From the IMG/VR virus record IMGVR_UViG_2585427743_000008: a stretch of 16,822 nucleotides of DNA; one strand, given 5' to 3'. The notes under the pieces are model-generated. The model was given only the letters and a program-made list of their open reading frames with translations, made no database searches and had not been told where the DNA came from. The stretch comes from a virus (lineage: Duplodnaviria; Heunggongvirae; Uroviricota; Caudoviricetes). The position numbers were made by a program, and so were the translations under genes. Shown here piece after piece: positions 9,372 to 16,567 of the stretch; the stretch's first letter is position 1, and each line of letters begins with the position of its first letter.

Positions 9372-9525
9372 GTTTTATCTCCTGAGGGGCCAGAAAATCG
9401 TCCGCACCTCCTATAGCACAAATAAAAGTTCTTTTTTTTTATCTTTTACAATCTTAAAAAATTTGTATCTTGCTCAGTGAGCACTTGATGCGTGTTTTAT
9501 ATCATCTCATACAAAAAAGGTTTTT

Positions 9526-9876
9526 ATGAAAAAATATATATTAGGTATTATTCTAACAATGGGATCATTCTCCGCACTTGCTGGCGGTGCATGGCAACCT
9601 TCCGTTGGGCCTGGGGAGTGCATCTCGTTCCAATCGGGATTAGGCGAAATTGGTGGATACAGATGGGTTTCTTCTAACGGGTGCAATGAGGTAATTAATC
9701 GAGGGTACGCACTCGGTGTGGCTTTAGAACGACGTGTGAATTATGCAAATGGAGATTCTGTATCATCGGCTGGAGTTATTAGCCCAAGTCGTGATTATGT
9801 GATGAAAGGCTCAAAGTTCTCTAATGGATCCCCAAAAGTATCTACAGGTGGTAGTAGCCCTTATTGGTATAAATAA
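9526..9876 (+). CDS. small Sec-secreted protein, dispersin (Aap)/CexE-like candidate substrate; predicted mature N-terminus Gly
   Basis: 116-aa ORF with a classic Sec signal (MKKYILGIILTMGSFSALA, AxA cleavage site) leaving GGAWQPS... as the mature N-terminus; two Cys (ECISF, NGCNEV); RBS AAAAGG upstream; strong terminator directly downstream. Size and architecture match the dispersin/CexE family as I recall it; not verified by alignment. Confidence 0.7.
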   Translation: MKKYILGIILTMGSFSALAGGAWQPSVGPGECISFQSGLGEIGGYRWVSSNGCNEVINRGYALGVALERRVNYANGDSVSSAGVISPSRDYVMKGSKFSNGSPKVSTGGSSPYWYK

Positions 9877-9882
9877 AATATA

Positions 9883-9920
9883 AAACAACCGCCTTGTTAA
9901 AGGCGGTTGTTTATTGATTC
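9883..9920 (+). terminator. rho-independent terminator after the small secreted-protein gene
   Basis: 13-bp perfect stem AAACAACCGCCTT / AAGGCGGTTGTTT (9883-9895, 9900-9912) with a 4-nt loop, followed by a T-rich stretch. Confidence 0.65.
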
Positions 9921-10158
9921 TATAACCCCATGCACATAAGCGCTTTATTTCAAGTGTTTCAAATATGTTAAGTGCATGAAAAAAGTTGCTGTATATAAAT
10001 TTCACTTGTAAGGGTTGCTTTTTTAGTTGTTAATCCTATATGGTGATTTAACATTTTTATTTCTTGAATACTTTTTATATTTTAGGGAAATGGTTTAGTT
10101 GTGTAAAACGAAATCTATAGATAGCAAAGGGTGTTTTGAGTATAGGTTTATATAAATC

Positions 10159-13849: not shown

Positions 13850-14721
13850 TATTTTCATACATTAACATAAATCAGTGTTATTAGATAAGCATAATTATTT
13901 TGCATATAACTAAAAATGTAATATTAAGTAAATAAATGATTAGTAAAAATATGTCGTTTGCAATATATAATTTGAGGGGGAATGTCTAATAACAATGAAA
14001 AATTCATTTTTTCTAGTACCTCATGCCTGGGGAGTAGATATTCCCGCAATGTTGATGGCTGCGTCAGAAAGAAAAATTTCAGTAATGTTTCAATCCGGCA
14101 GTGGAGTATGTCTGGAACAGCGTTCATCGTCGTTTCGGAGAAATATTACATGTACGTAATGATGGTATTAAATCTTTTGTCCGTTCCGTTCGACAGAAGG
14201 ACTGGGGATGTTATCTGCTGAATCAAGATTACGGTCCGGTATGCAGTGAATTTACGGACTTTTTCGCGACATATAAAGCAACATTACCGATTACTGGACG
14301 GCTTAGCAAACTCAGTGGGAGCAGATAATACTACTTGTTCCGGCTTATGACGGAACAAGTCATCGGTTGACCATTCATATCAGTTCTCCAGTTTCTATAC
14401 GACAGGAGATTGATGCTTAAAATTGAAAGTTTTGCTCGTCCACATTCTGAGCGGTATACACGTGCTAAAAACGAGTAAGATAGGATAAAATGATCCTTAC
14501 TAAGCCCGTTACTTTTGGATAATGAAATCAGGTATCAAAAAGGTGCCATCGCCAATTTTCGATGGAGTAGGTACATATTCCACCCTAACGTGAATACCTA
14601 TTATTTCGCCCCATCGGCGTCCCCTTTTTTTGATGTCAGTATGATGCTCACTTCCTCATTCCGACGGTTTAGCAGCCTGAAGAACTGGCTGATTTATTCA
14701 TGAATCATTGGCAGTTGTCTG

Positions 14722-14871
14722 TCAGACGGCATAAGGTAAGAGATCCACCGCAGTTGTGAAACGAACCTTGATACCTGCATGGACTGTCTTATAGTCTATT
14801 GCTATTGCCAGATAGTTTTTCCCTCTTCCCTGATGGCCCAGTAAAACAATGTTTTCATCACGTTGTATCAT
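14722..14871 (-). pseudogene. IS21-family IstB-like ATPase internal fragment (remnant)
   Basis: Found by manual minus-strand translation: [49 protein letters not shown], resembling the IstB Walker A region (NxLLxGPxGxGKTHLAxAL...RVxFTTAxxL) but with a degenerate P-loop. A further IstB-like stretch (IILTSKKGDADW) lies downstream in another frame (~14600-14640). Lies 18 bp from the Lnt-like gene stop. Confidence 0.5.
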
Positions 14872-14889
14872 GGATGAATGATAAATATT

Positions 14890-16134
14890 TCATATATCAA
14901 TAACAAAAAATGGTTTTTTGAGCGACGTTGCGAATACGTCATCATCGATCTTACCATTGTTTCTAATAAGTACAGTCCCTCCATGATTTTGGATGTTTAT
15001 ATATGCAGATGAATTTGGCGCAACAGAAAACCACCCAAGGATACTTCCATTTTTTATGATTCTATTATACATATCATTTTTATCTAGCCGCTTGTAATTT
15101 GATTGAACTATAACCAGTTCATTGTCTGACTTATCTATTTCAGGAAACAAAGCATCATAGCAAATATATGTTTTTATATTTATACCATTATGGATTATAT
15201 TTTTATTAATAATGTCTTTGTGTATTGTCAGATATTCAGACGTATTATCACCTTCATCCGAAAAATTCCATTTTTGCTCAACAAAAGGAATGAGTGATTT
15301 TTTTTGATTAATAAATGTTTTATCTTTATAATAATAAACCGACACGACATTGTTTATGTTATCAAAACCAAAGAAATTAAATATAAAAGCATGCCGCTGA
15401 TGCATATTGCTTATTTTTATATCGGATATTATTTTTTGTGTTATTTTCTTGCTGAGCTGACTCTTGAATCCATAAATTGTATTTTCTGAGAAAGCCACTA
15501 TATCAATATCATTATTTTCTTTTACAAAGTTTAATAGATCAGAAAGAAAATCTGTAGTATTCCCTCCCAATTGATAATAAAGCCCAACCTGCACTACCCC
15601 TATTTTAATTTTCTGCTGGTAAGTGTTTTGTGTAGATAAATATGATTTTTGAATCAAATACATAAAGCAAAGCGCGAAGAAATAAACAAACATCAACCTA
15701 ATATTTAGAAAAGGAAGCATTGACACAAATAAATACAATAAGAATAAATTAATGATTGGATATGGAATACTGTAAAGAAAATTATTAAATTTATAATACA
15801 ATAATATCAGTGGATTCAATGGCACAAACTTTGCATAACCCGCTGCTAACGTAAAAATTAATGAATGAATGATGACGCTTACTAAATTATAAGTAATGCT
15901 CATCCGATAGGAAAAGAAGTAAACTATATTATATGTAAGCGTGAAGAAACATATAAGTAGTGCTGTATTATCAAAAAAATAAAGAAATTCAGGACCAAAT
16001 AAAAAAAGGATGAAGCAGCATGAATATGCTAATACCCACAATAGATATGTGCTCACTCCATTTTTTTTAGAATAAAAATGCAAAAAGATGAAAAACAAAC
16101 TTAAAAAAACATCAATAGAATCATTAACACTCAT
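14890..16134 (-). CDS. Lnt-like membrane N-acyltransferase (CN-hydrolase/nitrilase superfamily; AatD-like)
   Basis: N-terminal ~165 aa very hydrophobic (about 5-6 TM helices), then a soluble domain with motifs matching the Lnt catalytic triad context: IVAFSENTIYGF (Glu ~217), KKSLIPFVE (Lys ~278/279; Lnt has K-x-x-LVPFGE) and YICYDALFPE (Cys ~325; Lnt has CYE). 414 aa; no C-terminal TM after the hydrolase domain. Confidence 0.75.
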   Translation of the reverse strand: MSVNDSIDVFLSLFFIFLHFYSKKNGVSTYLLWVLAYSCCFILFLFGPEFLYFFDNTALLICFFTLTYNIVYFFSYRMSITYNLVSVIIHSLIFTLAAGYAKFVPLNPLILLYYKFNNFLYSIPYPIINLFLLYLFVSMLPFLNIRLMFVYFFALCFMYLIQKSYLSTQNTYQQKIKIGVVQVGLYYQLGGNTTDFLSDLLNFVKENNDIDIVAFSENTIYGFKSQLSKKITQKIISDIKISNMHQRHAFIFNFFGFDNINNVVSVYYYKDKTFINQKKSLIPFVEQKWNFSDEGDNTSEYLTIHKDIINKNIIHNGINIKTYICYDALFPEIDKSDNELVIVQSNYKRLDKNDMYNRIIKNGSILGWFSVAPNSSAYINIQNHGGTVLIRNNGKIDDDVFATSLKKPFFVIDI

Positions 16135-16567
16135 AACACTATAAAAAACCTAATTTTATTTTTATCTTAACAATCACCAAATAACCAAAGAGATAATTTA
16201 ATGGTAATGTTTGCTATATGAGTAGATATTCTATTCGATGACTGTTTGGTTTATGTCATACCACTATAATATCTAAATAGCTGCGCCTAATATACTGCTA
16301 CACTTTTGGCAAAATGGCATCTGAATCGATCATGATTTGGTATGCTTCCTATCATTGACTGGCATCCTGCCAGTCGCTCCGGGAATTAGCTCTTTTCACC
16401 ACAGTCTCTATTGCCGTGTTAAAACCAATGGAGACGTCAATGCCCAAAAAGAGAAAATCTAGGAGCAACTATGGAAACCTGTTCTAAGATCCTTCAGCTC
16501 AACGTTGTATTGGACTGACGTTACTCATCAGCATCTCAAACGTTTTTGAGGTTCTTGCTGGCTTCAG

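Follow-up and report, generated by a model that had tools for sequence, protein, structure and literature searches.

The AT-rich part of IMG/VR virus record IMGVR_UViG_2585427743_000008 is almost certainly the CexE/Aat (Cex) secretion locus of enterotoxigenic Escherichia coli (ETEC), in its CexE-gamma form. The stretch of DNA analysed (the window) is the entire draft contig JORE01000030.1 (GCA_000713015.1) of 16,822 bp, which starts inside ISCro1, an insertion sequence (IS) of the IS66 family, and ends inside IS3. The locus is a mosaic of two AT-rich modules, 9407-13851 (cexE-aatPABC) and 14877-~16314 (aatD, inverted), assembled and trimmed by elements of at least four IS families. The content of the locus is already known, and the additions made here (a stem-loop behind cexE, support for the translation starts of AatD and AatP, and a map of the mosaic) are minor. 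The features of the locus, with identities to the proteins of the alpha-type ETEC locus (alpha) and of enteroaggregative E. coli (EAEC), are as follows.

9407-9525, plus strand: upstream region of cexE, defined by alignment with the alpha and delta loci.
9526-9876, plus strand: cexE, variant CexE-gamma, encoding a 116-amino-acid (aa) pre-protein; assigned by matches to a published sequence and to a PDB entry.
9883-9912, plus strand: GC-rich 13-bp stem-loop, terminator- or attenuator-like, directly 3' of cexE; found by a terminator scan.
10159-11298, plus strand: aatP (cexP), encoding a MacB/FtsX (LolC/E-like) inner-membrane permease of 379 aa; 70% identity to alpha AatP and 36% to EAEC AatP.
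11295-12500, plus strand: aatA (cexA), encoding a TolC-like outer-membrane channel; Pfam OEP, E = 2.5e-13; 66% identity to alpha AatA and 26% to EAEC AatA.
12457-13230, plus strand: aatB (cexB), encoding a periplasmic adaptor-like protein; 76% identity to alpha AatB and 30% to the EAEC 'dispersin export-associated protein AatB'.
13223-13849, plus strand: aatC (cexC), encoding a LolD/MacB-type ATP-binding cassette (ABC) ATPase; Pfam ABC_tran, E = 1.2e-29; NCBIfam LolD, E = 5e-44; 77% identity to alpha AatC and 50% to EAEC AatC.
14890-16134, minus strand: aatD (cexD), encoding an Lnt-like N-acyltransferase of 414 aa; 75% identity to alpha AatD and 34% to EAEC AatD.
16135-16314, minus strand: promoter region of aatD, comprising 180 bp of native, AT-rich sequence; defined by aligning the DNA upstream of aatD from the gamma, delta and alpha alleles.

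The gene cexE encodes the exported substrate. Its 116-aa product matches the 'CexE-gamma (ETEC)' entry of Rivas et al. 2020 (PMC7344145, supplementary file 2). Two short differences from the machine-read supplement (ECSIF versus ECISF and PYWK versus PYWYK) are most likely transcription artefacts; within the supplement the PYWK ending occurs in every variant shown, and ECSIF occurs in the gamma-clade entries (gamma, delta and Providencia alcalifaciens). The protein also matches PDB 9HHO 'Protein CexE' (E = 2.5e-31) and is 57.5% identical to the annotated 'protein CexE' of the alpha-type locus. Cleavage of its signal peptide, MKKYILGIILTMGSFSALA, between SALA and GGAWQ leaves a mature N-terminus of Gly20-Gly21. 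CexE-gamma therefore has the two marks of an Aat/Cex substrate, a Sec signal peptide and an N-terminal glycine after cleavage by signal peptidase I. Gly20 and Gly21 of CexE are the experimentally defined acceptor residues (Icke et al. 2021, PMC7943197).

The genes aatP, aatA, aatB and aatC encode the predicted export machine. Their reading frames overlap (11295/11298, 12457/12500 and 13223/13230) and form one contiguous unit, which is collinear with the alpha locus at 66-77% protein identity. The AatP family profile matches MacB permease domains (E = 0.002). Several RefSeq records start aatP at 10222 (358 aa), 21 codons later than 10159. The longer, 379-aa form has an N-terminal motif, E-A/S-L-x-N-I-x-E-N, which an alignment found to be conserved across seven divergent AatP proteins, and the start at 10159 is therefore more likely to be the correct one. 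In RefSeq, four of the six genes are labelled 'hypothetical protein' and the other labels are only 'ABC transporter' and 'TolC family protein'. These labels, and the best NCBIfam match of AatC, a putative bacteriocin-export ABC subfamily, would suit a generic ABC/TolC efflux or bacteriocin-export cluster merely resembling Aat. Such a cluster is extremely improbable, given the specific collinear homology to annotated CexE and Aat loci, the cexE substrate gene directly upstream and a dedicated Lnt-like AatD with the published catalytic residues; for practical purposes the homology data refute it.

AatD carries E217, K278, E286 and C325 at exactly the published positions. The E217/K278/C325 triad is invariant in both AatD alignments (20 and 23 sequences), and E286 is invariant in the 20-sequence alignment and conserved at 90% or more in the 23-sequence one. 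AatD matches the NCBIfam lnt model (E = 6.8e-6), and the top 23 PDB matches of its AlphaFold model (predicted local distance difference test score 85, predicted template modelling score 0.86) are all apolipoprotein N-acyltransferase Lnt. Profile searches with AatD did not retrieve Lnt from the PDB sequences, so that the resemblance to PDB entries comes through fold comparison only. We infer that AatD lipidates Gly20 of CexE.

Candidate boxes for the AraC-family regulator Rns/CfaD are conserved upstream of both cexE and aatD; the window contains no rns gene. The box upstream of aatD, CATTAAATTATC (16192-16203, minus strand), is identical in the alpha, gamma and delta alleles and is followed 22 nt later by a -10-like hexamer, TAAGAT (16164-16169). 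CATTA within CATTAAATTATC corresponds to the bases mutated in the published cexD Rns site (PMC13622617, Table 2). Upstream of cexE, the sequence TTTTTTTATC (9434-9443) lies inside a block that aligns with the CexE-alpha locus and that presumably contains the proximal Rns/CfaD site and promoter of cexE, a promoter known to be Rns-dependent (PMC13622617, PMC5554520). A promoter scan returned 34 sites versus 37.7 in shuffled sequence and is uninformative in DNA as AT-rich as this.

The aatD promoter region also bears on the start of the protein. Upstream of the 414-aa start (16135-16176, minus strand), the reading frame of the gamma allele is interrupted by the stops TAG, TAA, TAA and TGA, and the 14-codon N-terminal extension of the 428-aa H10407 CexD model (UniProt E3PPH8) is therefore not conserved. 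The 428-aa model is the one used for residue and promoter numbering in a 2026 preprint. In the alpha allele the upstream CexD ATG lies in the spacer that separates the Rns box from the -10 hexamer. The sequence thus supports the 414-aa start, which is a minor new point.

The mechanism is established for the system of ETEC H10407, whose proteins are 57-77% identical to those of the window, and by homology the gamma allele would work in the same way. CexE would be exported by Sec and then cleaved. AatD (CexD), as an inner-membrane acyltransferase of the Lnt type, would N-palmitoylate CexE at Gly20 in the periplasm. The AatP permease and the AatC ATPase, together a Lol/MacB-like ABC machine, would then act with the AatB adaptor and the TolC-like AatA channel to carry lipidated CexE to the outer face of the outer membrane, where it would serve as a coat protein and virulence factor. 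Rns/CfaD would act at the cexE promoter, driving aatPABC too, and at the separate aatD promoter. The N-palmitoylation of CexE and its AatPABC-dependent surface display were shown in H10407 and EAEC 042 (PMC7943197, PMC7478709), and surface delivery of the CexE lipoprotein by AatPABC is described in three papers (PMC7943197, PMC7478709, PMC7344145). AatD acylates glycine, and AatPABC has been described as a composite Lol/type I secretion system (PMC7943197). The cexE-cexPABC genes are transcribed from the cexE promoter, which depends on Rns, and cexD from an Rns-dependent promoter of its own (PMC13622617).

One of the closest known systems is the Cex/Aat system of H10407 (cexE-alpha, cexPABC/aatPABC and cexD/aatD, on plasmid p948), which is the alpha allele of the identities given above. 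It has the same six genes, with cexE directly upstream of co-oriented aatPABC and with overlapping frames. It also shares a detached, monocistronic aatD, Gly20-Gly21 in CexE, E217/K278/E286/C325 in AatD, the Rns-box core upstream of aatD and a GC content of about 30%. The arrangement differs: in the window aatD lies downstream of aatC, inverted and beyond remnants of lpxM and istB, whereas in the alpha-type locus it lies upstream of cexE, past an IS3-family element, and the upstream regions of the two alleles are cut by different IS elements. CexE-gamma and CexE-delta of Rivas et al. 2020 (PMC7344145) and the P. alcalifaciens homologue show no substantive difference from the window.

The Aat system of EAEC (aap and aatPABCD on pAA plasmids; the target of the CVD432 probe) has the same five-protein architecture, the same order of events (glycine acylation by AatD, then export by AatPABC), a GC content of ~32% and control by an AraC-family regulator, AggR. 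The Aat proteins of EAEC 55989 are only 26-50% identical to those of the window, and the sequence match of CexE-gamma to the dispersin structure 2JVU is very weak (E = 0.34). The aatD gene of EAEC directly adjoins aatC within a single operon and aap lies elsewhere, whereas in the window aatD is detached and cexE lies upstream of aatP. With the Lol pathway (Lnt and LolCDE) and the MacAB-TolC pumps the locus shares the Lnt fold and triad of AatD, the LolD-like AatC, the MacB profile of AatP and the TolC-like AatA. AatD is shorter than Lnt (414 versus ~512 aa) and has 6 rather than 8 transmembrane helices (PMC13622617). It acylates an N-terminal glycine, whereas Lnt acylates a diacylglyceryl-cysteine, and the Aat cargo crosses the outer membrane to the cell surface.

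The stem-loop at 9883-9912 has a predicted RNA fold of -21 kcal/mol (z = -5.5). A stem-loop 3' of the cexE or dispersin stop codon is kept in six of seven divergent loci whose primary sequences at this place show no relationship, and a compensatory pair change occurs in the delta allele. Counterparts were found at the following places.

L002 (alpha-type ETEC locus): ~9366-9412.
L005: ~4402-4431.
L006 (Yersinia enterocolitica), L007 (Citrobacter sp.) and L009 (NCBI assembly): each with a counterpart 3' of the cexE or dispersin gene.

The stem-loop is missing only from L008, also an NCBI assembly, where a bundlin gene and not aatP directly follows cexE. Its positional conservation is a minor new point; a search of the whole window against Rfam gave no match, and the 2026 preprint that reports read-through transcription of cexPABC from the cexE promoter does not mention a stem-loop at this position. 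The structure may be an attenuator through which the substrate-to-transporter ratio is set.

The compositional discontinuity claimed in the original prediction is sharp. By sliding-window profile and segment counts, 9400-16567 has a GC content of 32.0%, and the flanks have 48.8% (1-8670), 51.7% (8671-9399) and 47.8% (16568-16822); the difference between 9407-16314 and 1-8670 gives a chi-square of 474 (p ~4e-105). Likelihood-ratio segmentation places the breakpoints at 9411/9412 and 16279/16280 and encloses a segment of 0.314 GC. IS ends mapped independently by homology lie within 5 bp of the left breakpoint (9406/9407) and ~35 bp from the right one (~16314/16315), which confirms IS-derived sequence at both edges. 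Codon usage differs from that of the flanks as well: GC at third codon positions is 0.252 in the island genes and 0.522 in the flanking genes. The commonest island codons are AAA, AAT, ATT, TAT, TTT, ATA and TTA, which bears out the proposed dominance of AAA, AAT, ATT and TTT. The combined share of Asn, Lys, Ile, Phe and Tyr is 35-45% in AatP, AatA, AatB, AatC and AatD, the island proteins other than CexE, versus 14-30% in the flank proteins. The region is heterogeneous: cexE has 43.6% GC, the spacer 13850-14889 has 38.5%, and 16315-16567, at ~45%, is IS-derived and not AT-rich. A weaker AT-rich patch (4705-7088, 0.404 GC, falling to 0.32 around 4750-5250) occurs in the prophage part of the window.

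The sequences at the borders and between the two modules are as follows.

8671-8966, minus strand: C-terminal fragment of an IS66-family transposase, including the IS end; Pfam DDE_Tnp_IS66_C and DDE_Tnp_IS66 on a chimeric open reading frame (ORF), in agreement with the RefSeq annotation of an identical plasmid.
8992-9406, minus strand: left-end remnant of an unnamed IS3-family element (N-terminal part of orfA and terminal inverted repeat); assigned by homology.
13991-14525, plus strand: lpxM pseudogene (msbB2-type lipid A myristoyltransferase), truncated and frameshifted; 72.5% identity to pO157-type plasmid lpxM; a pseudogene in RefSeq.
14736-14868, minus strand: internal fragment of an IS21-family istB (IS100-like, 80%); Pfam IstB_IS21, E = 3.5e-12; blastn to IS100 istB.
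16315-16566, plus strand: left end of an ISSso4-like IS21-family element (left inverted repeat and first ~118 nt of istA); 82-84% identity to IS21-family/ISSso4 elements; orientation and place relative to istA read from locus L018.
16568-16822, minus strand: right end of IS3 proper (right inverted repeat TGATCCTACCCACG and C-terminus of OrfB); 98.6% identity to an annotated 'IS3-like element IS3 family transposase'; Pfam rve_2 and inverted-repeat match.

On the left, the IS3-family remnant is 95.9% identical to hundreds of intact chromosomal copies and ends with ...GTCCGCA at 9406. Homology to the intact copies stops there, so the native island starts at 9407 and 9406 is the true left border. 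The proposed boundary at the IS66-fragment ORF (8673-9371) was thus right in being IS-derived, but the direct neighbour of the AT-rich DNA is the IS3-family terminus; the IS66 fragment (8671-8966) forms the outer left flank, outside the AT-rich DNA. The remnant and its junction also occur in delta-type plasmids that are 97.7% identical, and the junction is therefore older than the divergence of the gamma and delta alleles. On the right, the true border of the AT-rich DNA is the IS21-family end at ~16314/16315. An IS terminus does lie at 16568, as predicted, but it belongs to IS3 proper and not to an IS629-like element. This IS3 copy is inserted into the IS21-family remnant, and the contig ends within it. 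A delta-type plasmid continues beyond 16567 without IS3, and the insertion is therefore recent. Comparison with related genomes placed both borders but let no target-site duplication be recovered, because the DNA that follows IS3 in record L001 is not a continuation of the delta-type plasmid; a repeat scan found no target duplications either.

The alpha locus is homologous to the window only over 9418-13851 and 14877-16203. Between the modules lie an extremely AT-rich segment of 140 bp, the truncated lpxM and the istB fragment. The lpxM remnant is filler of higher GC and different origin. Its pO157 relative sits in the ecf operon (cptA-lpxM), and the remnant hints that Aat was once linked to genes for lipid A modification, as a cluster carried by an ancestral virulence plasmid. 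The remnants of IS3-family, IS66-family, IS21-family and IS3 elements at or inside the borders make evident the repeated IS-mediated rearrangement envisaged earlier, and the picture of an IS-shuffled mosaic is in line with a published survey of 826 genomes, in which aat genes occur in six different arrangements (PMC7943197). The idea of one inserted island did not hold, since the region consists of two AT-rich modules with the truncated genes lpxM and istB as filler between them. Features of a genomic island are absent from the window, with no tRNA, no integrase among the ORFs and no flanking direct repeats; the repeats detected are short, AT-rich and due to chance. Nor does the region have the form of a composite transposon, its borders being different elements (the IS3-family remnant on the left and the IS21-family end cut by IS3 on the right).

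The same borders raise the question of whether the locus is a decaying, non-functional relic, with both promoters cut by IS elements and aatD torn from its operon. The distance from the nearest IS end to the ATG is 119 bp for cexE (IS3-family end) and 180 bp for aatD (IS21-family end), and truncated lpxM, truncated istB and a frameshifted IS3 surround the genes. A relic is nevertheless highly unlikely, as all six ORFs are intact, with exact sequences recurring on 59-147 contigs, the catalytic and acceptor residues are conserved, and the promoter-proximal conserved blocks are retained. The IS3-family junction common to gamma and delta has persisted through 2.3% divergence, and the functional H10407 system also has a detached aatD with its own Rns-dependent promoter (PMC13622617).

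The locus is clearly mobile accessory DNA, and the copy in the window may be plasmid- or chromosome-borne. Nine ETEC plasmid records carry the island at 100% identity and five more carry it as a delta-type mosaic at 97.7%; every one of the 14 records with query coverage of at least 80% is a plasmid. The exact proteins occur on more than 100 contigs. Aat/CexE proteins 92-98% identical to those of the window are found in an isolate of P. alcalifaciens, and related, diverged Aat loci occur on plasmids or chromosomes of E. coli, E. ruysiae, Yersinia and Citrobacter. Clustering at 90% identity places the AatD homologues among 5.8 billion proteins in only 30 clusters; every named one belongs to the Enterobacterales (E. 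coli, Citrobacter and Yersinia), and the search returned no low-GC taxon. An initial scan of species-representative genomes, based on an alignment of three AatD sequences, gave no match, and a later scan of 185,579 such genomes gave one match only (E. ruysiae); the peptide patterns were narrow, so that absence elsewhere is weak evidence.

The AT-richness of the Aat block recurs in every locus examined, with the following GC contents.

ETEC alpha: 0.28-0.32.
EAEC: 0.32.
Yersinia: 0.34.
Citrobacter: 0.33.
Two further NCBI assemblies (L008 and L009): 0.29-0.36.
E. ruysiae chromosomal block: 0.26-0.34, in surroundings of 0.45-0.58.

Alleles down to 25-50% protein identity all keep 26-36% GC, and the low GC is therefore an old, stable, family-wide trait and not the mark of a recent import into this DNA; no particular low-GC donor is needed to explain it. 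On the E. ruysiae chromosome (L020, ~5000-11000) a compact, contiguous cexE-aatPABCD set forms a sharp low-GC island. In Y. enterocolitica (L006, 5204-6232) and Citrobacter sp. (L007, 5104-5986 and 12867-13226) there are two or three CexE/dispersin paralogues, either in tandem or dispersed, next to one aatPABCD set; K88-type fimbrial genes and a PapB-like regulator lie directly upstream of these paralogues.

Horizontal acquisition from a low-GC donor, as first proposed, therefore stands only in part: the DNA is mobile and accessory, but no low-GC donor was found. That the region is a single genomic island, acquired recently as one block from such a donor and inserted between IS elements, is very unlikely. 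The sharp compositional step at both edges and the patchy, mobile distribution, including the Providencia set, would be expected of such a block. The two separately conserved modules with their unrelated filler would not, nor would the variation in the order and orientation of aatD between alleles and across the 826 genomes (PMC7943197), the lack of integrase, tRNA and flanking direct repeats in the window, the confinement of named AatD clusters to Enterobacterales and of the genome-scan matches to one species representative, or the low GC of even deeply diverged alleles. A plausible reading is that the low GC fits an H-NS-silenced, Rns-activated ETEC virulence regulon better than a fresh low-GC import; the CfaD regulon has been studied together with H-NS (PMC5554520). 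Nothing specific on aat GC content or H-NS was found in the literature. Jointly, the stem-loop may be a conserved partial terminator or mRNA stabiliser that gives a high ratio of CexE to transporter from the single, Rns-driven cexE-aatPABC transcript, and the AT-richness may be selected through H-NS silencing with counter-silencing by Rns, AggR and RegA. This double proposal is tentative and rather doubtful as a whole; neither of its parts is raised in the literature examined on Aat/Cex.

Several points weigh against the identification of the locus as a working CexE/Aat system of long-standing low GC. Adaptor matches of AatB are weak (TIGR00999/TIGR01730; EmrA, E = 0.03). CexE has no Pfam or NCBIfam match, a null that is uninformative for a Pfam copy without the 'Dispersin' model PF28204. 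Acylation, secretion and Rns dependence of the gamma allele are carried over from the alpha allele at 57-77% identity, and the native upstream DNA amounts to only 119 bp (cexE) and 180 bp (aatD), so a distal Rns site may be lost. The part of H-NS in lasting AT-richness is something we infer. Gamma/delta substitutions polarised by alpha comprise 57 weak-to-strong versus 39 strong-to-weak changes, with an implied equilibrium GC of 0.39 versus the current 0.30 (p = 0.08), in a test subject to parsimony bias and with an outgroup that is 25% diverged.

To the left of the IS66 fragment lies a lambdoid prophage late/nin region (2658-8670), which is chromosomal in other strains. Homology common to the plasmid records begins at 8671. 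A second draft contig (L016) links the same IS66 end to different DNA (type VI secretion system, helicase and HlyC-type genes), and complete plasmids link it to other IS debris. The fragment 8671-8991 is multi-copy, and the prophage adjacency at 8670/8671 may therefore be either genuine, the product of an IS66-mediated event, or the result of assembly across a repeat. A phage-borne gene for an OmpC/NmpC-like porin (5265-6347) lies between the Q antiterminator and the lysis cassette, within the AT-rich patch 4705-7088; this is a common lambdoid 'moron' arrangement. The ISCro1 copy (1-2657) is inserted beside the prophage Rha gene, and the contig begins 12 nt inside the 3' end of its tnpC. This tnpC reads as two ORFs (552-1559 and 1-537) instead of one 523-aa gene, and ISCro1 is therefore probably disrupted in the source strain.

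CexE has been shown to be a virulence factor, and to our knowledge CexE/Aat is the sole secretion pathway in which a glycine is N-acylated and the lipoprotein so formed is exposed at the cell surface. Recognition of the locus in this DNA matters mainly for annotation, in which its genes carry hypothetical-protein labels and a late aatP start. It also illustrates that an 'island' of strikingly high AT content need not be evidence of a recent foreign donor, but can be a virulence module that is old, AT-rich by nature and rearranged by IS elements.

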